From Sulfurospirillaceae bacterium (GTDB taxonomy: Bacteria; Campylobacterota; Campylobacteria; Campylobacterales; Sulfurospirillaceae): 64,000 nt of DNA. The DNA lies in the NCBI GenBank assembly GCA_033723415.1, contig JAWVXD010000001.1, forward strand, positions 397,090-461,089, given 5' to 3'. The position numbers and the translations under genes were made by a program. Below, piece after piece: positions 7,528 through 22,603 of the stretch (the stretch's first letter is position 1; the number at the start of each line of letters is the position of its first letter). Below the pieces are notes generated by a model that was not told the DNA's origin, did no database searches, and saw nothing but the letters and a program-made list of their open reading frames with translations.

Positions 7528-10389
7528 ATGTCCGAGACTTGCAATCGTAGACCAAAGTGTACACATCAAAAATATGGTGATTCTACGAAGTGTATCTTGC
7601 ATTGTGATAAATCAAATTTTAACGATGATGATATAAGATTTTTTTGGGAAAAAATACGGGAAGAATATATTCAGTACTCTTATCCTGATATTTCTAATGA
7701 GATTATCATAGAAGATGTAATCTTCCCTAAATTTGGAATTTTTAACAGGTATAACACATATTTTTTTCAAGGCAATTGTAGATTCCTTCATAATGTAAAA
7801 TTTATAAAGTGTATTTTTACAGATAATTTTGATTTATCACAAGCCGAATCTAGCCAAAAGATAACATTTGATAATTGTACTTTCTATGGAGATATTCAGT
7901 TCAGCCAGTCAAATACAATAGAGATAATAAATAATTCTCAGTTTAAAAATGAAGTCTCATTTGGACATTCCTGCTGGAATAAATTAGAGATAAAAAGCAC
8001 CAAGTTTTTTCAAGATACAAAAATATACATAAAAAATGATTTAAATATAGATGATTGTACTTTTAATAATGATGTCTTAATAGATGGTTTTACTACTTTG
8101 AACTTAGGTATTAAAAACGGATCATATAAGAAACTAGTAACCATAAGTAATACCAAAAGTATAAAGCTTGAAGATGTTAAATTGAACTCAGATGTAAATT
8201 TCAGTGGGACTAATGATAATATCGATATAAAAAATATCGAATTTAAGAAAGATGTGACTTTTGATGCATTTAATAATTTACACTTAAACAACACCCAGTT
8301 TCATCAAAAAAGCAATTTTAGTCCAAACCCATATCATGACATCACTTTTGACAACACAAAAATGAATGATGTGGAATTACATTCTGGGAATACTTTGACT
8401 ATCGTTAATTCTAGTGAAGTCAATGGAAATCTAAAGCTAAACGAAGTATATCAAAAGTTAAATATTGAAAATTGTAATATTAAGAAAAACTTGAATGTTG
8501 GCAATGTCAAGGAGATTATATTAAAGTGGAGTAGACTTGAAAAAAACTCAGTATTTAGCGGTGTATATAATGATGTAGATATCTTGGAATGCTCATTTAA
8601 AGACTTGACAATAAATGCAACCAATACAATAAAAATAAGTGACAGTAAAATTACTGGTGACCTTGATTTGCTTGGACAAGACTATAAAGATATATCTGCC
8701 AGCCACACTGAGATTTCTGGTACGATACAAATAGGTAAAGCGACAAAAATAGAGTTAATTGATCTAAAACCAAATCCATCTCTAAAACTGATAAATGATG
8801 AATATGAAGATGTCAATATAAAAGACTCAAGATTTACCGATGTTAAAATGAACTCTATAAAGGTATTAAATATTCAAAAGACTACAATAAATGGTATATT
8901 TAGTTTATTGGGAGAACAAAATCAAAATTTAACCTTTAATACGGTTAAATTTAAAAATAGATGTGATTTTCCTAATATTACTAAGTTGATTTTCAATAAA
9001 AGCAGTTTTGCAAAAGATGTGAATTTTAATACTTTAGGCAGGTTAGTTTCAAATCAAACTCAATTCAATGAAGACGTGAAATTTTTAGCAGAATGCACAA
9101 CTATTGAACTTGAAAATTGCGAATTTCATCAAAAAATGCAACTCTCAAAAGTTACAAATTCGTTGGATTTCAAATCTTGTTGCTTTAAAGGGGAGGTCGA
9201 TTTCAGGAATGGTGAATTTAAGGTAGTAAATATACTTTCTTCAACTTTTGAAGGTGATTTATTGTTATCCTCATCCATAATAGAAAAAATTCATCTAGAT
9301 AAGATAACAGAAGAATTGGCTGAAAATAACTCATTTTCTTCCGTAGATTTTACTGAATCACAAATTAAGTATATTACTATAGCCAACTCTAATTTTAGTG
9401 GTACATTAAAATTTACAAAGTTACAGCAAACACAATCTTTATTATCCTTAGATAATATTACAACGTCGACTATTGAATGTTTGATGATTGAACATAGTAC
9501 GATAATGAACTTATTTAGGAGTTCCAAGCATCTAATAATTAACAATTTTACACTAGAAAATGTAAAATTAGACACAAATAGTTCAGAAATAGATTTAACA
9601 GATATAAAAATAAGTGAACTAAAATTCAATAAAATAAGTATCTTAAAAAATATGAATTTTAGTGAAATGAAGATAAAAAAATTCATAATAGGCAATTCAA
9701 ACATAGAACATGTATTTAGAATAAAATACTCTGATATAGGTACTTTTACACTCATATCTAGTACTTTTGAAGACTTACAGATAATAGACAATAAATGTGA
9801 GCATTTTGATGAAGAAAAAAAATTAATATTGAGAAACACGACAATAAAAAATGCTGTATTAGACAAATTAAGATATAACAGTTTTATTATGAATGATGCT
9901 CATGTAAGTGATGTTAAAATAGGTTATGTAAAGTTCAAAAAGGGGAGTAGAGAAACAAATAGATTTTTCAAAAATTATTATGATTCAATTAGTGATTATA
10001 TTACAGCAAATACATATTATAAACAAGAGATGGAAGAACAACTCAAAGCTTCTTCTACTGATAACGGGGAGAAATTTGTTTTATGGATAGGGAAAACAGT
10101 TTCTAATTTTGGGCAAAGTTGGAGTCGACCTCTTTGCTTAATGATTTGTTTTTCAATTTTCTTTTTTATGTATATGCATTGGCAAATATTTTATAGCTAC
10201 GGATGGCATTATTTATGGCAAAGTAAATTAACTATTTGGAATGAATTTTGGGAATTTTTAAATCCATTTGTAAGAACAATTGATCCACAATACAAAGGAA
10301 GTTATAGTATTTGGATATTTCATAAAATATTGATGGCTATTCTCATGTATCATTTTATTGTAGCAGTAAAAAGAAAAACAAAAAGATAA
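7528..10389 (+). CDS. 953-aa pentapeptide-like beta-solenoid protein with N-terminal Cys/His cluster and C-terminal membrane domain
   Basis: C..CILHC N-terminus; long run of (I/F)xNxxF-type repeats; SNFGQSWSRPL followed by 2-3 hydrophobic helices. Confidence 0.7.
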   Translation: MSETCNRRPKCTHQKYGDSTKCILHCDKSNFNDDDIRFFWEKIREEYIQYSYPDISNEIIIEDVIFPKFGIFNRYNTYFFQGNCRFLHNVKFIKCIFTDNFDLSQAESSQKITFDNCTFYGDIQFSQSNTIEIINNSQFKNEVSFGHSCWNKLEIKSTKFFQDTKIYIKNDLNIDDCTFNNDVLIDGFTTLNLGIKNGSYKKLVTISNTKSIKLEDVKLNSDVNFSGTNDNIDIKNIEFKKDVTFDAFNNLHLNNTQFHQKSNFSPNPYHDITFDNTKMNDVELHSGNTLTIVNSSEVNGNLKLNEVYQKLNIENCNIKKNLNVGNVKEIILKWSRLEKNSVFSGVYNDVDILECSFKDLTINATNTIKISDSKITGDLDLLGQDYKDISASHTEISGTIQIGKATKIELIDLKPNPSLKLINDEYEDVNIKDSRFTDVKMNSIKVLNIQKTTINGIFSLLGEQNQNLTFNTVKFKNRCDFPNITKLIFNKSSFAKDVNFNTLGRLVSNQTQFNEDVKFLAECTTIELENCEFHQKMQLSKVTNSLDFKSCCFKGEVDFRNGEFKVVNILSSTFEGDLLLSSSIIEKIHLDKITEELAENNSFSSVDFTESQIKYITIANSNFSGTLKFTKLQQTQSLLSLDNITTSTIECLMIEHSTIMNLFRSSKHLIINNFTLENVKLDTNSSEIDLTDIKISELKFNKISILKNMNFSEMKIKKFIIGNSNIEHVFRIKYSDIGTFTLISSTFEDLQIIDNKCEHFDEEKKLILRNTTIKNAVLDKLRYNSFIMNDAHVSDVKIGYVKFKKGSRETNRFFKNYYDSISDYITANTYYKQEMEEQLKASSTDNGEKFVLWIGKTVSNFGQSWSRPLCLMICFSIFFFMYMHWQIFYSYGWHYLWQSKLTIWNEFWEFLNPFVRTIDPQYKGSYSIWIFHKILMAILMYHFIVAVKRKTKR

Positions 10390-10415: not shown

Positions 10416-11471
10416 TTAAAACAGATCCGTGGTTTTTTTCAATCTCTCTTGGTCAAAATGCGTATAAATTCTGGATGTATTGATATCTGCATGACCGAGG
10501 GATTCTTGAACGAGTACCAAATCTCTGTTTTTTTGGTAGAGCAGGGTGGCAAACGTGTGTCTTAGCATATGGCAACCGTTTTTCTCTTTCCTTAAGCCCG
10601 CACTCATAAGTATCTGCTCAACTAAGCGGCTTAGATAGGCTTGTGTTAATTTTGTGCCCTTTTGATTGCAGAACATCAGCCCGTCTTCACAATTTCTGAT
10701 CTCAAGCCATGCAGCCAAGTCCTCTTTGATCACGCGCTCTCTTATCATGACGACTCTGGATTTATTTCCTTTTCCTGTTATCTTTATGATGTAATTATCT
10801 TCTTCTTTGAAAAAGTCCTTGATCTTGACACTGATCGCTTCTCCGACTCTGATGCCTGTATAAAGGATTAGTTTTATGACCAAGCGGTTCCTAGCGCCAA
10901 GTTCAGGAGTTTTGTAATCAAATGCATCGATTGCATTGATAAATCTAGAGGCTTCTTCTTTGTTAAGAAAAGAGGGCAGTTTGACACCGCTTTTCCCGCT
11001 CAAACCGCCCCAATTTTTAAGCTCTATACCATATCTGTAGGCGTTGCCGTTTTCATCTTCATTTTGTTTATCTATATAACCAAAAAAGCCAAGTAGGGCG
11101 ATACGGTAGTTTTTTTTACTCGCATCTGACAAACTTGAAGTCTCACTCGCTAAAAAATCACTCAGAAGCTCTTCATCGATCTCTTTCATAGAACCTGCAC
11201 CAAATCGCATAAGATACTCATATAGCTTTTCAAGTGGACGGTAATAGACATGAACGCCACTCATACCTATATTTCTCGCTTCTTTTAAAAGATTTGTTAG
11301 AGTTTTTATATCACTGGTACCTTTTGCTAGATTTTGGATAATGATTGCCAGTTTGTCTTTGTCCGTTACTTGTCGATTTGAAAGAGTCGTAACCTTGTTG
11401 CGTATAAATCTACTAAGCCAAAAAAGATACGTTTGACTAAAAGTCGACTCAAGATCAAGAGAATACCTCAT
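10416..11471 (-). CDS. xerH: XerH-type tyrosine recombinase (chromosome dimer resolution)
   Basis: YTGIRVGEA, GKGNK.R, HMLRHTFAT, LGHADINTSRIY; 351 aa with the Campylobacterota XerH-type N-terminus (MRY.LD...F...LFWL.RF); difH-like site 50 bp upstream. Confidence 0.88.
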   Translation of the reverse strand: MRYSLDLESTFSQTYLFWLSRFIRNKVTTLSNRQVTDKDKLAIIIQNLAKGTSDIKTLTNLLKEARNIGMSGVHVYYRPLEKLYEYLMRFGAGSMKEIDEELLSDFLASETSSLSDASKKNYRIALLGFFGYIDKQNEDENGNAYRYGIELKNWGGLSGKSGVKLPSFLNKEEASRFINAIDAFDYKTPELGARNRLVIKLILYTGIRVGEAISVKIKDFFKEEDNYIIKITGKGNKSRVVMIRERVIKEDLAAWLEIRNCEDGLMFCNQKGTKLTQAYLSRLVEQILMSAGLRKEKNGCHMLRHTFATLLYQKNRDLVLVQESLGHADINTSRIYTHFDQERLKKTTDLF

Positions 11472-11517: not shown

Positions 11518-11553
11518 AATTGTATTGGAAACTGTAATTTCCAAACTCTTATT
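11518..11553 (+). other. difH-like site / attL: TTGGAAA-CTGTAA-TTTCCAA
   Basis: Perfect 7-bp inverted arms (11525-11531, 11538-11544) around a 6-bp spacer; resembles Campylobacter difH as recalled; right half repeated at 20744-20767. Confidence 0.85.
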
Positions 11554-11619
11554 TGGATTTATTGGCTTGAAACTTAAACGAGTGAGAAATTATGAGTTAA
11601 AACTTAAAAAGAGTATGTC

Positions 11620-12243
11620 ATGATAGACATAAAACTCATTGATAAGTTTAAAAATGGCCGTACAACGGTTGAGAATGATATTTTACTAGATAGTACCTTG
11701 ACAGCAACTGAAAAGATAGTCTATATGTACATCGAAATGCTATCGCACAAAGATAACTACTGTTATGCGACAAATATACAGATATCGGATCTTACCGGAC
11801 AAACAATAGACTCATTGAAACAAGCATTTAAAAAACTCAAAAAGAAAAAATACATTGTAGTCGATACGCTACAAACGCGCACACCATACAAGCGCCGTAT
11901 ATTCACGGAAACACGTTTTTTACGTGCTTGGAATCAAAACACCCTACCCCGTGACTGTACGGTAAAAGAGCCAATAAAACGGCCTGACGAGCTAGATAGA
12001 CAAGCAATCAGCAAGTCATTTCCAAAGTTTAGGAAATTCATAAAATTATATCTTACAGAAAATCAATTTAACATCACTACACCGGGCGAACTTCAAAACA
12101 AAACTATCATGATCAAAAAGAACGGCTACTACACAAGCATTTGGGATGCGCGAGATCTCACAAAAGATGAAAGCGTAACGTTTGAAATGCTGATGTTCGA
12201 TAAACGCGAAACATTGCTAGATAATTTTTTCAATAAGGAGTGA
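11620..12243 (+). CDS. Provirus replication initiator with N-terminal winged HTH
   Basis: T.V.NDIL.D..LT..EK.VY..I...CYATN.QIS...G....S......KL.KK.YI pattern typical of phage/plasmid HTH replication proteins; first gene of element. Confidence 0.7.
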   Translation: MIDIKLIDKFKNGRTTVENDILLDSTLTATEKIVYMYIEMLSHKDNYCYATNIQISDLTGQTIDSLKQAFKKLKKKKYIVVDTLQTRTPYKRRIFTETRFLRAWNQNTLPRDCTVKEPIKRPDELDRQAISKSFPKFRKFIKLYLTENQFNITTPGELQNKTIMIKKNGYYTSIWDARDLTKDESVTFEMLMFDKRETLLDNFFNKE

Positions 12244-12431
12244 AAATGCAAATCAAAAAAGGTGATATTATTGTCTATAAAGTCGGTAAGAATACAAAGC
12301 AAAGCAAAGTTAGAAAGATGAACTTTGATAATAGTGCTTCAATTTTTGCAAAAGAAAAGATCATACCTTGGGATAATATTTTAGGCGTATGCTCTACTAT
12401 AAAGGATCATCATGATAATCGAAATAAATGA
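12240..12431 (+). CDS. Provirus small basic protein (SH3/KOW-like pattern)
   Basis: IKKGDIIVYK; AAGGAG RBS; ATG at 12246 is an alternative start. Confidence 0.6.
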   Translation: MKMQIKKGDIIVYKVGKNTKQSKVRKMNFDNSASIFAKEKIIPWDNILGVCSTIKDHHDNRNK

Positions 12432-12627
12432 GGAAGATTATGACTTTATCATGTATCTTATCAGAGAGGAAATATATGATAAAAAAGACAGTTTAGAGAT
12501 ACTTAAAGGCAAAGATCATTTTTATGGTAACGAAGATCCATATAGGATAAAGAGGATCAAAGAGTTAAAAAGAGAGATTAGAAAGATTATTGAACTAAGG
12601 AGAGCTTTAAAACGAGGAATAAAATAG
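12412..12627 (+). CDS. Provirus small charged hypothetical protein
   Basis: AAGGA RBS, overlaps previous ORF. Confidence 0.65.
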   Translation: MIIEINEEDYDFIMYLIREEIYDKKDSLEILKGKDHFYGNEDPYRIKRIKELKREIRKIIELRRALKRGIK

Positions 12628-12637
12628 CTGTTTAACT

Positions 12638-12718
12638 CTCATATAGGGATACCGTAATTTCCCTATATGAGCGTTTTCATGTTACGGAATGAAAGCGCCT
12701 TTATATCAAAATAAAGGC
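12638..12718 (+). promoter_or_regulatory. Three consecutive stem-loops between early genes and holin
   Basis: CTCATATAGGGA/TCCCTATATGAG; GCGTTTTCAT/ATGAAAGCGC; GCCTTTAT/ATAAAGGC, the last covering the AAGG before the holin ATG. Confidence 0.6.
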
Positions 12719-12723
12719 ATAAA

Positions 12724-13173
12724 ATGGGAATAACAAATTTTTTCAGCGGTTTATTTAGCAGCGGAGCCGCAAAAGTAGTCGATGCGATCGGCAATGCAGC
12801 AGATAAACTCTTTACAAGCGATGCAGAGCGTTTACAATTCCGTAATGATCTACAAAAAGAGCTAGACGATCTCAAAGTCAAACTCAATGATGCACTTGCG
12901 GCATACGACAAAGAGATCACGACACGCTGGCAAAGCGATAACGAACACATCATCACGCGCTTAGTGCGCCCTCTTTCGTTTATATACGTTCTCGTCATAT
13001 TTTCATTTATGGCGCTACTTGACGGAAATATCGGAACATTTCATATCAACACGGCTTATTTGCCTATATTTCAAGGGTTACTTGGAACTATGGTTGTCGC
13101 CTACTTTGGCAGTCGTGGTATCGAAAAAGTATCAAACATAATAAAAAAATCAAATCAAGGAGATAACCAATGA
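12724..13173 (+). CDS. Holin (3TM / GTA-type holin family)
   Basis: D.LFTSD.ER, RW.SD, .R.VRP, two C-terminal TM helices, AYFGSRGIEK. Confidence 0.85.
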   Translation: MGITNFFSGLFSSGAAKVVDAIGNAADKLFTSDAERLQFRNDLQKELDDLKVKLNDALAAYDKEITTRWQSDNEHIITRLVRPLSFIYVLVIFSFMALLDGNIGTFHINTAYLPIFQGLLGTMVVAYFGSRGIEKVSNIIKKSNQGDNQ

Positions 13174-13505
13174 GTACAAAAAAGCAAATAGATCAGATCG
13201 AAGAGATAGAAGATCTACCCGATCAACTTGATCCACCAAATCCAGAGATTGAAAAGGAAAAGCCGGAAGTTGAGATAAAAGAAACTTTGACACCGGATCT
13301 CGAAAAAAAGATTGATGAGATTGAACATAAATTAGATCAATATCATGTTCAATCTATCAAAAAAGAATTTGAAGATCATTCAAAAGAAAAACTACAAAGA
13401 TCAAAATCTAAATTTATTTGGTTATTTGGTAGTATTTGTGTTGCTAGTATTGGCTTAATACTTATAAAAAACGCTAAAAACAGCGAAACGGAGGCTAATG
13501 GATGA
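13170..13505 (+). CDS. Provirus membrane protein (acidic N-terminus, C-terminal TM)
   Basis: AAGGAG RBS; FIWLFGSICVASIGLILI segment. Confidence 0.75.
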   Translation: MSTKKQIDQIEEIEDLPDQLDPPNPEIEKEKPEVEIKETLTPDLEKKIDEIEHKLDQYHVQSIKKEFEDHSKEKLQRSKSKFIWLFGSICVASIGLILIKNAKNSETEANG

Positions 13506-14065
13506 GTAAAGAAGCGGTTGACGGAACGGATAATGGCGTAGAAAGGAATATTCCTTTTGAAGAAATGGGAAACAGTACGGAGGGCATTACCCGTACTGAG
13601 TTAATGGAAAAAACCGGCAAAGAACTAGCAAAAATGGCATTGCCTTATACAACTTGGAAAGAGAGTACATTATCAAAGTTATCTAAGCCAGAACTATGTG
13701 ATATCATACTAACAAAAGGAGCAAATAAAGAGCAGCAAGAGCCGAGAGCTAGAGCAGCAAGAGCCACGAGTGATAGTGAAGCAATTATCGAGACATTTCT
13801 TGCTATTGCAGAGAGTTTTAAGCTTAAAAGAGAAAAAGAGCCTTTAAATGCTACAGCCAAACAGATCTTTAAAAATAATGCCGTTAATTTAGTCGATAAA
13901 AAGGTTGAAGAGGAAACGTTAAGCAGCCACGGTGTAAATGTTACAGTGGCATTTATTGCCGGTACATTTTTAGCTATAGACGGGCTTATAGGCTTAGCAA
14001 ACATCCCAACATTCTTTTCAAAGATAAAGAGCAAACTAAATGTTAATAAAACAGAAGCAAAATAA
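13502..14065 (+). CDS. Provirus membrane protein preceding the ATPase
   Basis: GGAGG RBS; C-terminal hydrophobic segment VTVAFIAGTFLAIDGLIGL. Confidence 0.75.
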   Translation: MSKEAVDGTDNGVERNIPFEEMGNSTEGITRTELMEKTGKELAKMALPYTTWKESTLSKLSKPELCDIILTKGANKEQQEPRARAARATSDSEAIIETFLAIAESFKLKREKEPLNATAKQIFKNNAVNLVDKKVEEETLSSHGVNVTVAFIAGTFLAIDGLIGLANIPTFFSKIKSKLNVNKTEAK

Positions 14066-14696
14066 GATAATTACAGTTATCGGACATAAGGGCTATGGAA
14101 AAACAGCTTTAACAGAAGCCCTTATGCTTATGTATGATAAACCGACAATTATCGCAGATCCACGATTTCAATACTCTACTTTTCAAAAGCGCCGTGTAAG
14201 CTTTAGATCTGTAGGTGATTTTAGAAAGTGGATCTATAACACGGCAAATTTCAAAGATTTTTATAAATACAAACTCGAACTCGTCGTAAATGCTTTTGAT
14301 GATACATTTGAAGAGTTAGCACATATTGTGAGACAAATGAGATCTTTGATGTTTGTCGTCGATGAAGTAGATATGTTCTTAGATCCACGGGCTACAAAAA
14401 ACAACTCCTTGAACAAAATTATTCAGTATGGTAGACACCACGAGATCGACATCATAACTACTTCTAGGAGACCGGCAAACATCTCGCGTAACTTAACATC
14501 TCAAACAGATATATTTTATTTCTCTAAGTTACGCGAGCCAACTGATAAACTGTACATAAAACAAGCGATAGGTGCAGAATATGTCAGTACCGTTGAAAAC
14601 TTAGAGAGATTTAGCTTTTTAGAGTTTGAAGACGAAGAACACCAAAAGATCATCACTACTTCTGAAAGAGATCTTGAACTATTACAAAGAGGGTGA
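14040..14696 (+). CDS. Genome-packaging ATPase (A32/FtsK-HerA superfamily)
   Basis: N-terminal Walker A GHKGYGKT, Walker B FVVDEVD, GRH..I.IITTSRRP..I...L arginine-finger motif; 218 aa, no TM. Confidence 0.85.
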   Translation: MLIKQKQNKIITVIGHKGYGKTALTEALMLMYDKPTIIADPRFQYSTFQKRRVSFRSVGDFRKWIYNTANFKDFYKYKLELVVNAFDDTFEELAHIVRQMRSLMFVVDEVDMFLDPRATKNNSLNKIIQYGRHHEIDIITTSRRPANISRNLTSQTDIFYFSKLREPTDKLYIKQAIGAEYVSTVENLERFSFLEFEDEEHQKIITTSERDLELLQRG

Positions 14697-14721
14697 GGAA
14701 AAATCTTTGAAAGGAGGAAAA

Positions 14722-14817
14722 ATGCAAGCAAAATTGATGAAAGGCTTTGTCTTAGGTATCACCGTAGTTGTTATAAGTGGCGTTGTGGGTAAATGGATCC
14801 CATCCGTAAAAATATAA
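14722..14817 (+). CDS. Provirus micro membrane protein (31 aa, MQAKLMKGFVLGITVVVISGVVGKWIPSVKI)
   Basis: AGGAGG RBS; single TM helix; shorter start than ORF track. Confidence 0.7.
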   Translation: MQAKLMKGFVLGITVVVISGVVGKWIPSVKI

Positions 14818-14843
14818 AAAAATTTATCATATAAGGAAAAAAT

Positions 14844-14951
14844 ATGAATATCACAAAACTTGATGTTTATTTGGCAGCAGGTATCTTAGTTGGCATTGCA
14901 GCCGGGAAAAAATTTGTTGATCCGATCTTAGTTTCGGTTTTGGGGGCATAG
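14844..14951 (+). CDS. Provirus micro membrane protein (35 aa, MNITKLDVYLAAGILVGIAAGKKFVDPILVSVLGA)
   Basis: TAAGGA RBS; stop 1 nt before capsid ATG; not in ORF track. Confidence 0.7.
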   Translation: MNITKLDVYLAAGILVGIAAGKKFVDPILVSVLGA

Positions 14952-14952
14952 T

Positions 14953-15912
14953 ATGGCGCAATCATTAAAAGTAAAAGAAAATTCCGCAACGTGGGCAGCT
15001 TCTACTCAATCCAGGATCCCTCTTAGTAGAAATTATCATGTGGAAAATTACCTTGTGAAAATAAAAGTAACACATGATAACGGGGCAACCCCTGTGTTTT
15101 ATAATGAGGGCGTTTTTTCTTTAATTAACAATATACAGTTGATTGGAAATGGCAATGAAAATATTAAACAAATGCCAGCAAACAAATTATATATCGACAG
15201 TATTTTAAGAAGTGGGAAAAATGGCGGTAACTCTCTTGATACTACAGCAAACAAAACCGGACTTACAAGCTATGTTTGGGCCCGTATCAATCTAAGTATG
15301 CCAAATTCTGTTCGACCTTGGGACACTATCCTATGGACAAAACCATTCCAATCTCTCGATCTTATGATTGATTGGGCTTCAAGTGCAAATATCGGATCTA
15401 ATATTACTGTAACAGCAGCAGAAATGACAGTATTTTCAAATCAGTTAATCGGATATAGTAGAGCAAAAGGCGAAGTGATTAAATACTATGAAGAAACAGC
15501 ACTTAAAGAAGAAGTGACTGGAACAAATGCTCAATTAACTTTCAATTTACCAGTAAATAAACTTTATAGAGCTATTTCTATAGTATCAACAATTAATGGC
15601 TTAAGAGCTGATACTGTGATAAACTCTATTAAGCTAAAAAGCGGGCAAACAGTTTTTTGTGATTGGGATGCTGAAGCATTTAACGAACACAATAAAGAAA
15701 CATATCGTATTGAATCATCAACAGATTTTAAAGGAATCTATGTAGTTGATTTTGCAGAGCGTGGAAGACTAAGCGATATGCTGAATACAATCGTAGCACA
15801 AGGTGGTTACAATACTTTAGAACTTGTTTTAAACGTCACAAAACAAACGGGATCAAACTTTGTAGACGTCTATTTTGACACGGTAAAACAGACTACAGCA
15901 ACGGAGGTTTAA
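14953..15912 (+). CDS. Putative double-jelly-roll major capsid protein (STIV-like)
   Basis: 319 aa, alternating beta-strand pattern in two halves; just downstream of the ATPase; N-terminus TWAASTQSRIPLSRN and second-half LPVNKLYRAI...VVDF resemble recalled STIV B345. Confidence 0.75.
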   Translation: MAQSLKVKENSATWAASTQSRIPLSRNYHVENYLVKIKVTHDNGATPVFYNEGVFSLINNIQLIGNGNENIKQMPANKLYIDSILRSGKNGGNSLDTTANKTGLTSYVWARINLSMPNSVRPWDTILWTKPFQSLDLMIDWASSANIGSNITVTAAEMTVFSNQLIGYSRAKGEVIKYYEETALKEEVTGTNAQLTFNLPVNKLYRAISIVSTINGLRADTVINSIKLKSGQTVFCDWDAEAFNEHNKETYRIESSTDFKGIYVVDFAERGRLSDMLNTIVAQGGYNTLELVLNVTKQTGSNFVDVYFDTVKQTTATEV

Positions 15913-15913
15913 T

Positions 15914-16219
15914 ATGCCTAATTATAACGGGGATGGCACAAACGGCGGTATTTCCACCGCCTCCACTCCAATTTCAGGAACGGTAAATGGTACTGATTGG
16001 TTATCAAATATTTTAAAGCCTATTAGTAATGCCGTTGTTACAGTTGCACAAACACAAGCACAAGTTGACGCACTAAAATCACAGACCGCTACACAACAAA
16101 ATTATCAAAATACACAAAACGCAATTGGATCTAAAAATATCATTGGCGGTGTGGATAACAATATCTTACTTTTGGGTTTAGTTGGTGTAGTCGGAATTTA
16201 CATGTTTATGAAAGGGTAA
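15914..16219 (+). CDS. Putative virion membrane protein (Gln/Thr/Asn-rich, C-terminal TM)
   Basis: GGAGG RBS; ILLLGLVGVVGIYMFMK terminus. Confidence 0.75.
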   Translation: MPNYNGDGTNGGISTASTPISGTVNGTDWLSNILKPISNAVVTVAQTQAQVDALKSQTATQQNYQNTQNAIGSKNIIGGVDNNILLLGLVGVVGIYMFMKG

Positions 16220-16222
16220 ATT

Positions 16223-16609
16223 ATGGGTTTCTTTGGTGGAAGTGCTAGTAGTAGCGGAATTGTAACAAGTAGCATTAATTTTAACCCGTCAATGCAGTTT
16301 GGCACAGATAATACAGCAAAGCCCTCTCAATCAGTAAGTCAGACACCCAAATTGACACAAACTACAAAGGATCAAGGGCTAGCAGCCGCCGCAAGTGTTG
16401 GGCTTGGTTTTGGTGGGAGTGGATCTGCAGGGCCGGCAAGTTTGGCAGAAGCTCCTCTGGTTGGATCTGCACAAACTGGAAGCGCTGCACAGCCTTTAAG
16501 TACTTTGGCATCTAATTACAAAAAATATTTGCCTTTACTTGGCTTAGCCGGAGTTGGTGGATATATGCTAATTGTAAATGATAAGTCTGGAAAAAAGGCT
16601 AAAAAATGA
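16223..16609 (+). CDS. Putative virion membrane / DNA-delivery protein (Gly/Ser/Ala-rich, C-terminal TM plus basic tail)
   Basis: YLPLLGLAGVGGYMLIV followed by KSGKKAKK. Confidence 0.75.
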   Translation: MGFFGGSASSSGIVTSSINFNPSMQFGTDNTAKPSQSVSQTPKLTQTTKDQGLAAAASVGLGFGGSGSAGPASLAEAPLVGSAQTGSAAQPLSTLASNYKKYLPLLGLAGVGGYMLIVNDKSGKKAKK

Positions 16610-16920
16610 GTTGGTTAAGTAGTCTTTTAGGTGGTGGAGGCAGCACAAGCTCCACTACCTCAAACACAACGGTAAGTGTAAGTCCAACTACAATTATAAA
16701 TACCGATAAACTGGCTCAAGCTATAGCAGACGGAAATGCAACACAAGCACAACTTGCACAAGCAACAATCACAGCACAAGTAGCCGAACAAAACGCAAAA
16801 TTGCAACAAAACGCGCAGATCTTTGATACCTTAAGAGCAGGCGCAAAAAAATATGCTTTTTTAAGTTTGCTAGGCTTTGGAGTTTACAAGATTTTTAAAA
16901 ACAAAAGAGGTAAAAAATGA
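16606..16920 (+). CDS. Putative virion membrane / DNA-delivery protein
   Basis: MSWLSSLLGGGGS start, Ser/Thr then Ala/Gln coil, C-terminal TM and basic tail; ATGA overlaps at both ends. Confidence 0.75.
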   Translation: MSWLSSLLGGGGSTSSTTSNTTVSVSPTTIINTDKLAQAIADGNATQAQLAQATITAQVAEQNAKLQQNAQIFDTLRAGAKKYAFLSLLGFGVYKIFKNKRGKK

Positions 16921-17471
16921 ATTACAACGTAATTACAAAAGATATATCTAACGGGCTATCTCTTAGTCAAAGCAATACACTTGGAAAAGGAGATTATATT
17001 ATCTTAAGATATGCGCCGGATCTTGCGAATGTACGAGTGAGATTAAACAGCCCTGATGCTCCTGCAATAAGTATGATACAAGATGACAGCATCAATGCAA
17101 AAGGCATAAATCTTGTATATATCGAGTGTGACCCAGTAGCAGCAGAAAAGATAATCTTTGCCCAGGGCAATACAGATCTAGACTTTCAAATCAATCCGGC
17201 TCCTGCTCTTAAAACTGTAAATGTAAACGGATCTTTTATGCCGCGTACGGATCAAAAACAAACGATAGCTGCAGGAGCAAATTTTATATTAGACACAACG
17301 ACACTTAAAGCGATCAGGTTTCTAGCTACTGATTACGTTGATGTGTCACTCAATGGCAGTGCAATAAACTATCAAATGCTAGAAGATGAGATCTACACGG
17401 GTAATATCACGTCGTTAAAGTTTACAAACAACACGGCTTCAGCCATTGATCTTGTAATATGGGAGATGTAA
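16917..17471 (+). CDS. Putative vertex/spike protein (beta-rich)
   Basis: 184 aa soluble beta-strand pattern, position after membrane proteins; function inferred. Confidence 0.55.
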   Translation: MNYNVITKDISNGLSLSQSNTLGKGDYIILRYAPDLANVRVRLNSPDAPAISMIQDDSINAKGINLVYIECDPVAAEKIIFAQGNTDLDFQINPAPALKTVNVNGSFMPRTDQKQTIAAGANFILDTTTLKAIRFLATDYVDVSLNGSAINYQMLEDEIYTGNITSLKFTNNTASAIDLVIWEM

Positions 17472-17472
17472 A

Positions 17473-17853
17473 ATGTTAGGTATTTCAAGAGCTTTGGTAG
17501 AAAAACTTTTCGCAAAAAAAAGCGACAAAAATCAGTGTACAGCTTGGGTTGTATTTGACGGAACAACAACTCCTCCAACAATAAAAGATAGTTATAATGT
17601 TATTTCTGTTACTAAAATTGCAGTCGGTGTCTACGATATAAATTTTACAATACCTATGAAAAATATAAACTACCAAACAAGTGGATCTGTAACAGATGAT
17701 AATTCTTCTAGTGGGTTTATCTATGAAAGAGGCACTTTTGCACAAAATAGAACCGTTAATAAATGCAGAATTGTAACTATTCAGATATCTGGAGGTAATA
17801 CAAGTACAGTTGATCGTTCAGGGATAACATTCAGCGCAATTGGAGGTATCTAA
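17473..17853 (+). CDS. Fibre / receptor-binding domain protein
   Basis: AWVVFDG...IKDSYNV.SVT....GVY.INF..PM.N.NY pattern seen at C-termini of phage tail fibres. Confidence 0.65.
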   Translation: MLGISRALVEKLFAKKSDKNQCTAWVVFDGTTTPPTIKDSYNVISVTKIAVGVYDINFTIPMKNINYQTSGSVTDDNSSSGFIYERGTFAQNRTVNKCRIVTIQISGGNTSTVDRSGITFSAIGGI

Positions 17854-18164
17854 TGGGATATTTTAAAGTAGTTAACGATTATGTTCAAACGTGTAGTAAA
17901 AAAATAGATGATACTTGGTTTCCAATTACTAGAGATCAAAACGGAAATATCATCGGGCCGAGTGTTCTAGTCACGCAAATTGCAGATGAACAAAAAGCAA
18001 CTTCAAACGCAAAAATAATGCAGCAGATAACAGCACTTGAAAGTGAACTGATAAGACCGATGCGAGAGCTTTTAAGCTCAATTGTAACAGACAAAACCTA
18101 TGCTCAAACAAAGGTAAATGACATCGAAACAAAAATTGAAGCTTTGAGGGCTCAAATTGTCTAA
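17853..18164 (+). CDS. Small protein following fibre gene (possible fibre chaperone)
   Basis: GGAGG RBS; helical C-terminus I..QI.ALE...IRP.RE....IE..I..LR.Q. Confidence 0.6.
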   Translation: MGYFKVVNDYVQTCSKKIDDTWFPITRDQNGNIIGPSVLVTQIADEQKATSNAKIMQQITALESELIRPMRELLSSIVTDKTYAQTKVNDIETKIEALRAQIV

Positions 18165-18690
18165 GAAAAAAATAATAGCCTATGGCTCTTTTTTGGTGTC
18201 ATTGGTATATTTTAGGAGTTTTTTTATGTACGGATTAATTTCAAAAAAACATTTGGACGAAATTATCGTCAATGTAGTTAATACACTAGGTGGAGGTCAA
18301 AATGCTATAGATCTTTTAAGCGAAACGGCTATGTCGGAGACACACTACGGAGATACACCGGACCTACACTTACACAGCGGTTATGGAATTTTTCAATTTG
18401 ATAAGCCAGGCTTTGATGATGTAGTTGCCAGAACACCGCAAAGTACAAAGGATCTCATCAAAAAAGTCTATGACATTGACATCGATCAAGTCAGCATATT
18501 GGCGCTGCAATGGTCGCCGCTTTTAAGTACGATCTTTGCACGACTTTTTTACATGCTTCGCCCTGGTGCGATCCCTGATACAATTCAAGGACGGGCACAG
18601 TATTGGAAACAGTATTACAACACTTTTGCGGGAGCAGGAACGGTGCAACATTATCTTAATGCAAACCAAACCGAAAGGTTTAACGCATGA
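18157..18690 (+). CDS. Putative murein hydrolase (lysozyme-like), two possible starts (TTG 18157, ATG 18226)
   Basis: LL.ETA..ET..G, G.G.FQFD, AR L.Y...P..IP.T...RA.YWK.YYNT..G.GT pattern of a phage lysin family. Confidence 0.7.
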   Translation: MSKKKIIAYGSFLVSLVYFRSFFMYGLISKKHLDEIIVNVVNTLGGGQNAIDLLSETAMSETHYGDTPDLHLHSGYGIFQFDKPGFDDVVARTPQSTKDLIKKVYDIDIDQVSILALQWSPLLSTIFARLFYMLRPGAIPDTIQGRAQYWKQYYNTFAGAGTVQHYLNANQTERFNA

Positions 18691-19067
18691 CACCAACTTT
18701 AAATAATAATTTAGCGGATATGTTTGTTGCGTCCACACCGGTTTTGCAGACGGCACCGATACAGTCAAGCAATTTAAGTACATTTGATAAGATATTATAC
18801 GGTTATGATAATATGATCTCAAATGCTAGTAATTCAGCAGATCAAACGCTTACAGATCAAGCGATTGCACAAGAAAAATTTAAACAAAATGCATCGAATA
18901 TGTATACAAATTTTAAAGCAAGTCTTGGCAGCGCATACGATACGATCAGCAAAGATCTAAATATCTCAAAAAATATTTTGATCTATGGCAGCATTGCCGC
19001 CGGATCTCTTTTTCTTTGGGATAAGATCGGGCGTGATATTTACTACATGACACAAAAGGGGAAATAA
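18687..19067 (+). CDS. Provirus membrane protein (C-terminal TM)
   Basis: ATGA overlap with lysin; ILIYGSIAAGSLFLW segment. Confidence 0.7.
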   Translation: MTPTLNNNLADMFVASTPVLQTAPIQSSNLSTFDKILYGYDNMISNASNSADQTLTDQAIAQEKFKQNASNMYTNFKASLGSAYDTISKDLNISKNILIYGSIAAGSLFLWDKIGRDIYYMTQKGK

Positions 19068-19189
19068 TGCACGAAATAGCAATGTGGATGCAAATTTTAA
19101 CACCGGTAGTTATTTTGCCACTAGCAAAGACTTTAAGCGATCTAAAAAGAGACGTTGCCGTTCTTATGGAACGTACAAAGGGAATGTAA
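19067..19189 (+). CDS. Provirus micro protein (40 aa, MHEIAMWMQILTPVVILPLAKTLSDLKRDVAVLMERTKGM)
   Basis: TAATG overlap, AAGGGG RBS; hydrophobic N-half then short coil; not in ORF track. Confidence 0.65.
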   Translation: MHEIAMWMQILTPVVILPLAKTLSDLKRDVAVLMERTKGM

Positions 19190-19190
19190 T

Positions 19191-19325
19191 ATGGACTTAA
19201 CACAAGCAAGCAACGCAGTCGGAGCACAAATAAAAGAAGGGATCATACAATCTGGTAAAGATATCGGTTTTAAGATTACACTTGGTTTATGTATTATTGC
19301 AATCGCAATTTATGCTAAAAAGTAG
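19191..19325 (+). CDS. Provirus micro membrane protein (44 aa, MDLTQASNAVG...ITLGLCIIAIAIYAKK)
   Basis: Starts 1 nt after previous stop; C-terminal TM plus KK; ends at terminator; not in ORF track. Confidence 0.65.
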   Translation: MDLTQASNAVGAQIKEGIIQSGKDIGFKITLGLCIIAIAIYAKK

Positions 19326-19350
19326 TGACGAGATCTCGTCACACTTTTTT
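19325..19350 (+). terminator. Rho-independent terminator of the virion operon
   Basis: Palindrome GTGACGAGATCTCGTCAC followed by T-run. Confidence 0.75.
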
Positions 19351-19569
19351 AATCTCTTTTTTGTCTTAAGTTTCAAATCAACCTTAAGCCTTTTTCTATC
19401 TCGGATCTCCTGGCGCTGCACAAATCAAAACTACTATAAAATCGACATTTCATTTTTTAAAAAATTTATAAAATCGTTTAAGTTTCAAAATAACCTTAAA
19501 CGATTTTATTCATATAGATCTTCTTCTTTATGATATACTTTTCTAAAAATTTATATCAAAAGGCTTTAT

Positions 19570-19968
19570 ATGACAAAAATTATACTCTCAAGCATAGCGA
19601 TATCCGCCCTATTCTTTGGATGTGCTAGTAAAGAGCCATTATCAACCGTTGAAGCAACTGACTACGCTATGAGCTGCAATGCTCTTATAAGTGAAATTAG
19701 CGACATAAGATCACAACTACAAACGGAAGAAACTACAAATGAAGCTAAAAATATCATCGGTAAAACTTTAACATTCGGAATTTATAGCGCAGACAATGAA
19801 AAAGCCATACTTTTGCGCGAACGTGCAAAGAGTTTACAGCTTATATATACAATAAAACAAGCAAAAAATGAGTGCAAACAACTAACTGAAAAAGATCTAC
19901 AAGTAAATAGCACACCCGTGAGAGAAATAAAAAATCTAAAAGCACAAACAAAAGAGCTTAAAAATTAA
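19570..19968 (+). CDS. Provirus lipoprotein (separately transcribed moron)
   Basis: Signal peptide with lipobox LFFG-C; extended -10 TGATATACT at 19531-19539; AAGG RBS. Confidence 0.8.
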   Translation: MTKIILSSIAISALFFGCASKEPLSTVEATDYAMSCNALISEISDIRSQLQTEETTNEAKNIIGKTLTFGIYSADNEKAILLRERAKSLQLIYTIKQAKNECKQLTEKDLQVNSTPVREIKNLKAQTKELKN

Positions 19969-20005
19969 TTTCGCGCCAGATCTTTACGTTCAAACTCAAA
20001 AACTA

Positions 20006-20285
20006 TAAATTTACCCTTTCAGGATTAATTCTTTGAGGGTAAATTTAAACAATCTCAAAAATTATAGGTACTTGCCTATAAATAAAAAAAATTGATTGTA
20101 GAGCGTTTGAGAGCGTTTTTTTACTCAATAAAATCTCAACTTCAAAAATCTTTCACATATAAACAGCTTATGTACGGTGCTTTGATCCTAAATCAAAGCA
20201 CTAAAAAGCACGCGACAGCGTGTTTCATCCTAAGAGCAAAGAAAAACACAGCCGCGAGGCTGTTTCCTTATTGAGTCGCAGCGAC
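20006..20285. other. Non-coding cluster of hairpins
   Basis: TAAATTTACCCT/AGGGTAAATTTA, TTATAGG/CCTATAA, GTGCTTTGAT/ATCAAAGCAC, CACGC/GCGTG, ACAGCC-GCGA-GGCTGT. Confidence 0.55.
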
Positions 20286-20365
20286 GCGAAAATCAAATCA
20301 AGCCTAAATAATATTATTTATCTAAGATATCTATCAAAAAAAGACTTTGTATATATATAGGAAAC

Positions 20366-20439
20366 CTAGTGTCTCATAGACACCAGAAAGTAATGACCTA
20401 GTGTTTCATAGACACTAGCTGTTGTCTCACAGACACTAG
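20366..20439. repeat. Three 21-bp palindromic repeats (consensus CTAGTGTCTCATAGACACTAG), candidate origin iterons
   Basis: Copies at 20366-20386, 20398-20418, 20419-20439, followed by an all-AT tract 20440-20474. Confidence 0.75.
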
Positions 20440-20594
20440 ATAATAAAAAATTTATTAATTTTTTAAAAAATTAAGCTTGGTTTAAAAAGTTTAGTATTAG
20501 AATGGTGCTTTAAGTTTCAAAGCTACGAAGAGTAGCCGTGCAATGCTTGCAACAAAACACGGCTTACAAATACAACCTATTACGGAGGTTATAA

Positions 20595-20777
20595 ATGTAT
20601 TACAATCAAATTATATCCACAAATCCTTTCAATATACTTAAATTTTCTTCAAAATCAAAATTAACCTTAAACAAAAAAAATGTTATAAAGTTTGAAAATA
20701 ATATTTCAAAATACCCTATTTATCGAAGTTTTGAAATGGTGTCAACTATAATTTCCAAACTTTTATTAATATGCTAG
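20595..20777 (+). CDS. ORF crossing attR; 60 aa when integrated, 80 aa in the predicted circle
   Basis: GGAGG RBS at 20585-20589; frame stays open across the rejoined att site to TGA at 11621-11623. Confidence 0.55.
   Translation: MYYNQIISTNPFNILKFSSKSKLTLNKKNVIKFENNISKYPIYRSFEMVSTIISKLLLIC
20744..20767 (+). repeat. attR: difH right arm with degenerate left arm
   Basis: AACTATAATTTCCAAACTTTTATT matches 11530-11553 at 22 of 24 positions. Confidence 0.85.
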
Positions 20778-20782
20778 ATAAT

Positions 20783-20812
20783 AGAGAGTCCAAATAATAT
20801 ATTGGACTCTCT
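20783..20812. terminator. Stem-loop terminator between provirus and Sel1 gene
   Basis: AGAGAGTCCAA/TTGGACTCTCT 11-bp stem between convergent transcription units. Confidence 0.7.
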
Positions 20813-20830: not shown

Positions 20831-22603
20831 TTATTTTTTATCACAAAGGTTTGAATATAGTTTGCACAAATAATTCAAACCTTTTACAGCAAACTTATTA
20901 CCTTGTTTTGATGCTCTCTCAAATTCTTCTTTTGCTTTATACACATCTTTATCCACTCCAAACCCTTTGAAATACATATAACCAAGCATGTATTGAGCTT
21001 TTGAATAATTCTGTTTTGCCGCTTTTTGATAAAATCTAAAAGCAACATCATATTTTTTAGGTACACCATGTCCCAAATAATACATATTTCCCATATTATA
21101 CTGTGATGGTGCATAGTTTTTCATAGCAGCTTTTAAGTATAATTCTACTGCTTTTTTGTAGTTGATTGGGACACCCCTTCCCATTTGATATACAATACCA
21201 AGATTATTCTCTGCAAGAACATAATTATGATCAGCTGATCTAGTATACCAATACAAGGCTAGTTGATAATCAACTTTCACACCCAGCCCTTTTGTATACA
21301 TATAACCTAAGTTATATTCCGCTTTTGGATAGTTTTTTGTTGCAGCCTTTTTATATAATTTTATAGCAAGTGGATAATTTTGTTTTACGCCTTTTCCTAT
21401 CATGTATAGATTGCCTAAATTATACTCTGCTTCCGGCATATTATATCTAGCTGCTTCTTCATATAATTGAGCTGCCTTCATATAATCTTGCTTTACACCA
21501 TATCCGTATTGATATAATACACCAAGATTATTTAGTGCTTTTGTATCATGTTGAGCTGCAGCCTTTTTATACCACTTAACAGCTTTGGTATAATCAGTCT
21601 TGACTCCTTGTCCGTATGCGTACATGTATCCTAGATTATATTGCGCCTGATGCATATTGTTTTTGGCAGCTTTTTTGTATAGCTCTATAGCCTTGGCATA
21701 ATCAACATCAACGCCATGTCCATACTGGTACATAACACCTAAATTGTTCTGCGCCAAGGGATAATTTTGATCAGCTGCCCTTTTGTACCATTTAAAAGCA
21801 TTTTTGAAGTCCGCAACACCTTTATTATAGTGTTCATAAGCATAACCCAGATTGTACTGGGCTTGAGCCAAGTTTTGTTTAGCTGCTAGAGTATAAAGAG
21901 AAAGGGCTTTATCTTCATCTTTCTCAACACCTCTTCCCAACTCATACATTATTCCTAGATTATTTTGAGCCAATGGGTAATGTTGTGCAGCAGCTTTTTT
22001 ATACCAATACACTGCCTTCTCATAATTTACTTTTACCCCTTGTCCGTATGCATACATATACCCTAGATTATACTGAGCTTCGGGCATATTACTTTGGGCC
22101 GCTTTTTTATACAAGTCTAAAGCTTTAGCATAGTCTTGTGCGACTCCTTTACCTCGTTGATACATATTCCCTAAATTATTTTGAGCCTTATCAAAGTTTT
22201 GATCGGCTGCTTTTTTATACCATCTGAGAGCTTCTTGATAATCAACTGAAGTGCCATCACCTTTTTCATAAATATAAGCTAGATTATATTGTGCCTGAGG
22301 CATATTTTGTTCAGCTGCATGCTTATAGTATTCTATTGCTTTTGAATAGTCTATATCTACACCGTTGCCAAATTGATACATAGTACCTAGGATATACCAA
22401 GCATTTGCATTATTATCTTGAATTGCTGCTTGTTTAAAGTACTTTAGGGCTTGTTCGTACTTGCCTTGGTCATAGTAGTTAATCGCAGTATTAAAAACTT
22501 TGCTATGTGTCATGATTTGACCTGTTTTTGGCTGAGATGTAGCACACCCGCTAAATAAAACTATAGCAATTGTCATACTAATTTGAACAAGAATCTTTCT
22601 CAT
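20831..22603 (-). CDS. Sel1-like repeat lipoprotein
   Basis: Lipobox LFSG-C; about 14 36-aa AQ.NLG.MY..G.GV..DY.KA..WY.KAA repeats. Confidence 0.92.
   Translation of the reverse strand: MRKILVQISMTIAIVLFSGCATSQPKTGQIMTHSKVFNTAINYYDQGKYEQALKYFKQAAIQDNNANAWYILGTMYQFGNGVDIDYSKAIEYYKHAAEQNMPQAQYNLAYIYEKGDGTSVDYQEALRWYKKAADQNFDKAQNNLGNMYQRGKGVAQDYAKALDLYKKAAQSNMPEAQYNLGYMYAYGQGVKVNYEKAVYWYKKAAAQHYPLAQNNLGIMYELGRGVEKDEDKALSLYTLAAKQNLAQAQYNLGYAYEHYNKGVADFKNAFKWYKRAADQNYPLAQNNLGVMYQYGHGVDVDYAKAIELYKKAAKNNMHQAQYNLGYMYAYGQGVKTDYTKAVKWYKKAAAQHDTKALNNLGVLYQYGYGVKQDYMKAAQLYEEAARYNMPEAEYNLGNLYMIGKGVKQNYPLAIKLYKKAATKNYPKAEYNLGYMYTKGLGVKVDYQLALYWYTRSADHNYVLAENNLGIVYQMGRGVPINYKKAVELYLKAAMKNYAPSQYNMGNMYYLGHGVPKKYDVAFRFYQKAAKQNYSKAQYMLGYMYFKGFGVDKDVYKAKEEFERASKQGNKFAVKGLNYLCKLYSNLCDKK

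Follow-up and report, generated by a model that had tools for sequence, protein, structure and literature searches.

A split leader ORF may tie a putative replication gene to the circular form of an integrase-free double jelly-roll element at a difH-like site

Introduction

How could a prophage with no recognisable repressor keep its replication gene silent in the chromosome? The question is raised by an element in a stretch of 64,000 nucleotides from a bacterium of the Sulfurospirillaceae (contig JAWVXD010000001.1), the whole of which is referred to here as the window. A preliminary description of this DNA proposed that integration of the element splits a short ORF, that the ORF becomes coupled to rep only in the excised circle, and that lysogeny could in this way be maintained by genome topology. 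We followed up this proposal computationally in the window and in related genomes, which are designated by G numbers.

Results

The region 11538-20761 is, in our judgement, probably a 9.2-kb temperate, tailless phage with a double jelly-roll (DJR) capsid and no integrase of its own. All element ORFs scanned (11620-20777) lie on the plus strand. The major capsid protein gene (14953-15912, plus strand) encodes 319 residues, and the structural model of its product has a mean pLDDT of 72.6 and a pTM of 0.71. Foldseek matched the model to PRD1 P3 (E 1.6e-18, TM 0.67-0.72), to the STIV MCP (8.7e-16) and to PM2 P2 (9.1e-13), and the protein as modelled has a double jelly-roll fold. At the sequence level, the match to PF25513 (P2_C) scored 23.5 bits, under the cut-off of 25, and a PDB sequence search with capsid and Rep profiles gave nothing under E 0.2. 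Upstream of the capsid gene lies a gene for a P-loop packaging ATPase (14040-14696, plus strand; phrog_2666, E 5.6e-22; AAA_22). Further genes encode a holin-like protein (phrog_3427) and several small proteins whose hydrophobic C-termini were noted by eye. Judged by sequence and by the capsid model, the gene content is that of a PM2/PRD1-type tailless phage.

The gene at 11620-12243 (plus strand) encodes 207 residues with an N-terminal winged-helix domain (PF13730 HTH_36, E 2.8e-8). It also matches PHROG replication-initiation families (best 4e-9), and these matches cover the N-terminal third of the protein only; the name rep is reasonable for this putative initiator gene. Three 23-nt iterons, each with an internal palindrome, occupy 20364-20439. 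Iteron triplets stand at the equivalent place in G040 and G403, and they are likely to be the origin or Rep-binding sites.

An 11-nt motif, TTAAGTTTCAA, recurs at 19366, 19478 and 20510 on the plus strand and as its complement at 11567 and 11597 on the minus strand; five of its eight matches in the window fall in non-coding parts of the element. The copies at 19366 and 19478 belong to 30-nt repeats with an inverted partner, upstream of a lipoprotein-like gene (19570-19968), and related forms are found around attP in distant relatives too. The motif is probably an operator for a putative DNA-binding regulator.

Pfam and PHROGs gave no integrase or recombinase match among the 21 element ORFs within 11620-20777. 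Outside the element, a 351-aa host gene (10416-11471, minus strand) matches PF18644 (E 5.9e-56) and PF00589 (E 1e-31) and aligns with H. pylori XerH (5jjv) at E 1.6e-100 over residues 11-349. These matches identify the gene adjoining attL as host xerH and not a phage integrase. The xerH gene was found in all five of the other genomes of the same genus that were queried.

The left junction, attL (11524-11547), has the appearance of a regenerated difH-like site, with a TTGGAAA arm, a CTGTAA centre and a TTTCCAA(ACT) arm, both arms being palindromic. At the right junction, attR (20739-20761), a degenerate phage arm, GTGTCAA, is followed by a CTATAA centre and the arm TTTCCAA(ACT). The two junctions share a 24-nt direct repeat (11530-11553 and 20744-20767) that is identical at 22 of 24 positions. 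An exact 13-mer of this repeat occurs twice in the whole 2.43 Mb genome, both times at the att copies. A palindromic attL-type site adjoins xerH also in G199, G253, G331 and G403; the site beside xerH reads TATTGGAAACTATAATTTCCAAACTAT and is unoccupied in G253, G331 and G403. No site of the TATTGGAAACTATAATTTCCAAACTAT type was found in the xerH-region loci inspected in G354 and G397. The attL arms resemble the H. pylori difH arms as quoted in a review, where difH is described as always near xerH (PMC5357621).

Cumulative GC skew was assessed along a single contig of 461 kb in an assembly of 17 contigs. It rises over 400 kb to a peak at 416,421, between attL (408,613) and attR (417,828); the skew of the 64-kb window alone was ambiguous, and that of the whole contig was decisive. 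We identify the target of insertion, from these sequence features, as the host dimer-resolution site difH at the terminus. When the window was compared with G040, right-side homology stopped at 20769, just past the core, and left-side homology continued through xerH. Because the element has no recombinase of its own, has difH-like flanks and leaves host XerH outside, we classify it (approximately 11538-20761) as an IMEX at difH that uses host Xer recombination, with catalysis predicted to be by XerH.

Several features of the junctions and their surroundings were also observed. The central regions of the two att sites read CTGTAA in attL (11532-11537) and CTATAA in attR (20746-20751), and the CTATAA centre is also present in the dif sites of G040, G199, G253, G331 and G403. 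The single G/A heterology between attL and attR may hinder excision, or may mark the position of strand exchange. Left of xerH, in DNA of 26-30% G+C, a gene at 7528-10389 encodes a 953-aa protein with pentapeptide-like or DUF3737 repeats and a hydrophobic C-terminus. On the other side, attR is abutted by the gene for a 590-aa lipoprotein with 14 Sel1 repeats (20831-22603, minus strand); G040 has a different gene to the right of dif, so the flank on that side is variable. G199 (L014, 2569-3760) has, in addition to the difH linked to xerH, another dif-like site 1.17 kb further right, and between the two sites are small ORFs of 131 aa and 115 aa. The C-terminus of the second ORF product is RelE/ParE-like by eye, and this dif-bounded pair may be a mini-IMEX with a toxin-antitoxin pair.

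At its right end, the integrated element carries a TAGAAT hexamer (20498-20503) and a GGAGG (20584-20588) placed 6 nt ahead of ATG 20595. The ORF that starts there has 52 codons within the element (20595-20750, plus strand) and continues in the integrated form to a TAG at 20775-20777, giving 60 aa (20595-20777). Joining 20751 to 11537 adds 28 codons and a TGA (11537-11623, plus strand), a stretch that is orphaned at the left end when the element is integrated. The result is an 80-codon ORF, here called the leader ORF, whose TGA (11621-11623) overlaps the rep start at 11620 as ATGA. The attP site occupies codons 51-56. The positions that the preliminary description had given were all confirmed; with the att positions as they are, integration does part rep and the last 28 codons from the promoter, the leader and the first 52 codons. 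A terminator that it had placed at 20783-20812, past the truncated ORF, was recovered in part: a hairpin in host DNA (20783-20811) followed by TTCTTTG is visible by eye, but the terminator scan did not list it. The hairpin probably terminates the Sel1-repeat gene, which is convergent.

The joined stretch has 23% G+C, and its remaining five frames hold 4-9 stops. The body of the joined ORF was free of stops in 6 of 20000 dinucleotide shuffles. A lenient test accepted, in any of three frames, every stop-free run over the joint that matched or exceeded the observed length; 63 of 5000 shuffles passed it. We are confident that the open frame over attP is a real, selected feature.

Searches for rep gave matches in 3 of 401 genomes for the order and in 4 of 61 for the family, one of the latter being weak (G410); both counts include G000, the genome of the window. 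Rep had no match in a viral contig collection; a metagenome contig collection returned the G403 contig again and nothing else, and a genome contig collection returned that contig and one 27%-identical match from Anaerococcus. Of the 401 genomes sampled from the order, G403 not being among them, 2 have the leader DNA pattern, namely G000 and G040; none of the viral contigs has it. The set of rep-bearing elements for comparison is n = 3, and two of these are close kin: the Rep of G040 is 79% identical, and a matching element occupies the equivalent xerH site in that genome. Spacings in G040 are those of the window: ATG and core are 157 nt apart, and core and rep 82 nt. Its joined frame is open over 80 codons, a result retained in 9 of 20000 shuffles, and ATGA is present.

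G403, with a Rep that is 59-61% identical, carries the joined form in one piece on a 2089-bp contig (L018). The order on this contig is iterons, a -10 hexamer CATAAT, hairpins, GGAGG, ATG 961 and a 73-codon frame that passes through an att-like ATTATAGTTTCCAATAC to TGA 1180-1182, which overlaps the rep ATG at 1179. The frame is open in 74 of 20000 shuffles, though its first 162 bases match the window at 88 only. The xerH-linked dif site of the G403 chromosome is empty, and the packaging ATPase was not found in that genome. The unintegrated configuration is seen directly in this contig; the genome is a metagenome bin, in which a tandem array or another cell is a possible source. Contigs from one DNA sample, possibly the source sample of the window, contained the integrated form only and no joint. 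Contigs drop rare variants, so the absent joint there says nothing about excision.

Every one of the three elements has 157 nt between ATG and core, free of indels, and the positions of the SD and ATG are conserved. The sole length difference among the three is in the tail after the core, which is 21 nt (7 codons) shorter in G403. The ATGA overlap of leader stop and rep start is present in each of them. The preliminary description had suggested looking for the open frame and the ATGA in relatives, and both are kept in every element with this rep.

Substitutions between the window and G040 revealed different patterns along the leader ORF. The tail of 28 codons has 7 substitutions, 5 synonymous and 2 non-synonymous, with a dN/dS of 0.08 where the shifted frames give 1.16 and 1.27; in the head of 52 codons, dN/dS is about 1.2. 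When 40 random substitutions, the number that separates the window from G040, were made in the window's ORF, the frame stayed open in 796-1988 of 20000 trials. Synonymous sites in the head are unusually conserved, with a pS of 0.19 compared to 0.68 in rep and 0.56 in the ATPase gene. Since the pS of the head is so far below that of rep, part of its conservation appears to be at the DNA or RNA level. A motif, GAAACTTAAAC, recurs on both sides of attP and could explain part of the tail conservation. The substitution pattern points to selection for an open, translated frame that brings ribosomes to the rep start, together with nucleic-acid constraints; a folded protein product of the leader ORF is less likely.

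An alternative is that the ORF over attP encodes a small basic protein with a role of its own, made by the circle and destroyed by integration, for example a helper of XerH integration. XafT is known to aid TLC-phi integration. The proximity of the ORF to rep would then be operon packing. Such a protein would account for the conserved frame and for the purifying selection on the 28 C-terminal codons, but it would leave unexplained the dN/dS of the first 52 codons and the low similarity of the leader peptides of the window and G403, which have 15 of 54 residues in common. The exact ATGA in all three elements also exceeds the needs of packing. Database searches with the leader peptide lend the protein little substance: there was no homologue in a search of 5.8 billion proteins, Pfam searched at E up to 10 gave two noise matches only (E 0.037 and 0.14, both with the window's integrated form), and scores in a protein atlas were all 0.81 or less. 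In its favour, small regulators are described as flanking attP in the dif-type DJR phages of Vibrio (PMC12715192). On this evidence, a small protein with its own role seems unlikely.

We consider it improbable that the ORF is untranslated, the region being non-coding (an origin, attP, and DNA or RNA with regulatory roles) and the open frame a by-product of other constraints. The conserved synonymous sites of the head, a region full of hairpins and motifs that resemble binding sites, and the absence of a homologous protein from the databases searched would all suit non-coding DNA. They have to be set against the rarity of open frames among shuffles of each of the three elements, the single length difference of 21 nt, the conserved GGAGG 6 nt ahead of a conserved ATG, the stop placed exactly on the rep start in all three, and the location of 5 of the 7 tail substitutions at third positions.

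The proposed -10 hexamer of the leader/rep promoter (20498-20503, plus strand) occupies equal alignment columns in the three elements (TAGAAT, TAGAAT and CATAAT), in each case 6 nt before TTAAGTTT. The -35 element is weak in this phylum. A sigma-70 scan, which requires a -35, listed neither this -10 nor the one on the minus strand described below; the -35 at the plus promoter is poor. Nowhere in the region is conservation higher than in the 85 nt that separate the -10 from the SD. Alignment and folding place two or three hairpins and the SD GGAGG (20584-20588) in a conserved 5' leader (20510-20594, plus strand), and the pairs of one leader stem, that of the second hairpin, are preserved in G403 despite two double changes.

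The minus strand of this region has a predicted fold of -28.4 kcal/mol (z -4.28) in the window and -32.8 kcal/mol (z -5.68) in G403, and the plus-strand fold is unremarkable (z -1.22 and -1.79, respectively). On the minus strand, a 12-pair hairpin places an anti-SD CCUCC at its loop and its stem over the start codon. Standard pairs fill 35 of 36 cells of this anti-SD hairpin on the minus strand vs 29 of 36 on the plus strand, a difference caused by G·U pairs. A minus-strand TATAAT (20615-20610) is invariant in all three elements, 12 nt before the anti-start CAT and within an otherwise variable part of the ORF. A candidate antisense RNA with predicted ends (20515-20615, minus strand) would comprise this -10, the anti-SD hairpin and the second hairpin; it has no clear terminator. 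An antisense RNA over the leader may exist, and we put this slightly on the doubtful side. The preliminary description had stated that the element has no recognisable repressor. Pfam and PHROGs agree in that no P15/P16-type repressor was found, but the statement had overlooked the candidate antisense RNA.

No Rfam family reached its threshold in the leader region. The PtaRNA1 model (RF01811) matched the minus strand at 20531-20601 over its full length with 25.7 bits, against a gathering score of 47; the stretches from G040 and G403 were unmatched at E up to 5. It is very unlikely that the ORF is the toxin of a type I toxin-antitoxin system, disarmed by integration and paired with a PtaRNA1-like minus-strand antitoxin: the full-model match and the anti-SD loop architecture are shared with such a system, but the score is under the gathering score and the other two elements are unmatched, the peptide is poorly conserved and without a conserved hydrophobic segment (the window's stretch over the joint is missing in G403), and the leader stop overlaps the rep start in all three.

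The reading that we prefer, and hold to be rather probable, is that the leader ORF couples rep to the circular form. As the preliminary description had noted, rep has no strong SD: the AAGAG about 9 nt upstream (AAGAG/AAGGA at 8-9 nt) is weak to moderate. A small hairpin with covarying pairs surrounds the rep AUG in all three elements; it would fit coupling and, with three sequences, is a hint only. In the dif core, TGTAAT in the window and TATAAT in G040 are potential -10 sequences and could give rep its own transcript in either form.

Searches with the ATPase led to related DJR elements in three further genomes. Two of these, G206 and G228, belong to another family, and their elements are bounded by 22-bp direct repeats similar to the classical XerCD dif (TTAACATAA-TGTA[AT]A-...). 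The repeats are at 3996 and 14604 of the reverse complement of L034 in G206 and at 4231 and 13734 of L035 in G228. Some members of this phylum use XerCD, according to a review (PMC5357621). The G206 and G228 elements share one host locus across two genera. Stop-free runs of 85 and 91 codons cross their joints, lengths reached by 197 and 316 of 5000 shuffles, respectively. The junction frames stop 47 and 15 nt ahead of rep and their starts are doubtful; as a shared feature, these open frames are suggestive. A long open frame over attP is present in all five elements examined. In the third genome, G263 (L033), the locus stops at a contig end and a late-gene query gave no other contig. A TAA lies 60 nt before the rep ATGA there, and the frame may be closed, given an att candidate at 3950-68.

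Discussion

We propose a mechanism in which host XerH would insert the phage circle into chromosomal difH. The circle would present, in order, the iterons, the promoter (-10 at 20498), an 85-nt structured leader, the SD and ATG 20595, the 80-codon leader ORF, and rep. After integration, the promoter, leader, SD and 52 codons would stand at the right end, with the frame running into host DNA and a hairpin. The left end would keep the remaining 28 codons and rep, preceded by xerH in divergent orientation. Integrated rep, lacking a phage promoter upstream and any supply of ribosomes from the leader, would be off; we infer its silence in the integrated state and regard this step as sound. Excision, or a tandem copy, would restore the cassette. 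Translation of rep would depend on translation of the leader, and a minus-strand RNA with an anti-SD loop would throttle the latter. The translation of the leader would matter more than its peptide, since the first 52 codons have a dN/dS of about 1.2, yet the frame is open.

A more general proposal is tentative. In a Campylobacterota DJR lineage, the licence to replicate may be genome topology and not a protein repressor. The Xer site would lie inside the leader ORF of a leader-rep cassette controlled by antisense RNA, and XerH, or XerCD in relatives, would act as the on/off switch between plasmid life, as in G403, and a silent insert at dif.

Gating of expression by the topology of an element is classical. 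Phage P2 int is subject to split-operon control, Tn916 to circularisation-dependent expression, IS911 has a junction promoter, and the integrase gene of SSV1 is split by integration. As in these systems, integrated or circular topology would decide here whether a promoter is joined or a gene intact. They gate a recombinase or a transfer function, whereas the gated function here would be a replication initiator, controlled by cutting a coupling ORF.

The element can also be compared with other Xer-dependent phages. The dif-type DJR (PM2-like) prophages of Vibrio and Pseudoalteromonas are of the IMEX class, use XerC/D and have an attP that splits a p16-p15 operon, as set out in the 2025 description from Vibrio (PMC12715192). 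A 2007 survey of PM2-like prophages had raised CTX-phi-style Xer use as a possibility only (PMC1950889). Like the Vibrio and Pseudoalteromonas prophages as described, the element is small, tailless, integrase-free and located at the host dif, with one junction that regenerates a canonical dif; attP likewise splits a transcription unit, the halves of which become the prophage termini (PMC12715192). Those prophages use XerC/D and a classical 28-bp dif, in contrast to a single XerH and difH here, and their attP is placed between p15 (xafT-like) and p16 (repressor) in a leftward operon (PMC12715192). Here, attP is inside an ORF that leads into rep, and the scanned genes are all on the plus strand. 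The filamentous IMEXs of Vibrio cholerae, CTX-phi, TLC-phi and VGJ-phi, similarly rely on host Xer at dif and have an attP with one good and one degenerate arm. As reviewed, they have ssDNA and the protein repressor RstR, and both the recombinase family and the capsid type differ here (PMC5357621).

The leader-rep cassette has its nearest analogies in plasmids. Plasmid R1 is controlled by CopA-tap-repA, and the IncI, IncB and IncI2 plasmids by an antisense RNA, a leader peptide (RepY/RepR) and rep, in the accounts consulted (PMC5717011, PMC8053102). The cassette shares with the R1/IncI arrangement a leader ORF end that overlaps the rep start, iterons and Rep nearby, and a structured leader in which the SD and start of the leader ORF lie under an antisense RNA, a candidate in this case (PMC5717011, PMC8053102). 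Leaders in R1/IncI have 19-29 codons (PMC5717011, PMC8053102) compared to 73-80 here, where both the antisense RNA and the coupling are predictions. Rfam and Pfam gave no homology to tap, repY or CopA or to the Rep of IncFII/IncI, and Rep matched HTH_36 only. By analogy, the cassette appears to be built like an antisense-controlled plasmid replicon, R1/IncI-like but not a member. It has a recombination site inside the leader ORF, and we found no description of one for R1/IncI plasmids.

A literature search, which covered its sources in part and is no proof of absence, found no description of an element integrated at difH. A DJR phage in which the leader ORF putatively coupled to rep contains a Xer site looks like a new combination. 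The difH elements described here document Xer exploitation in bacteria with a single recombinase, XerH. An active origin in the terminus region should harm the chromosome, and cutting the initiator cassette by integration would, if true, be a simple way of avoiding this harm with no repressor. Split-operon control and leader-peptide coupling of rep would then extend to a group of phages about whose lysogeny little is understood, and the element would be a natural, compact topology sensor.
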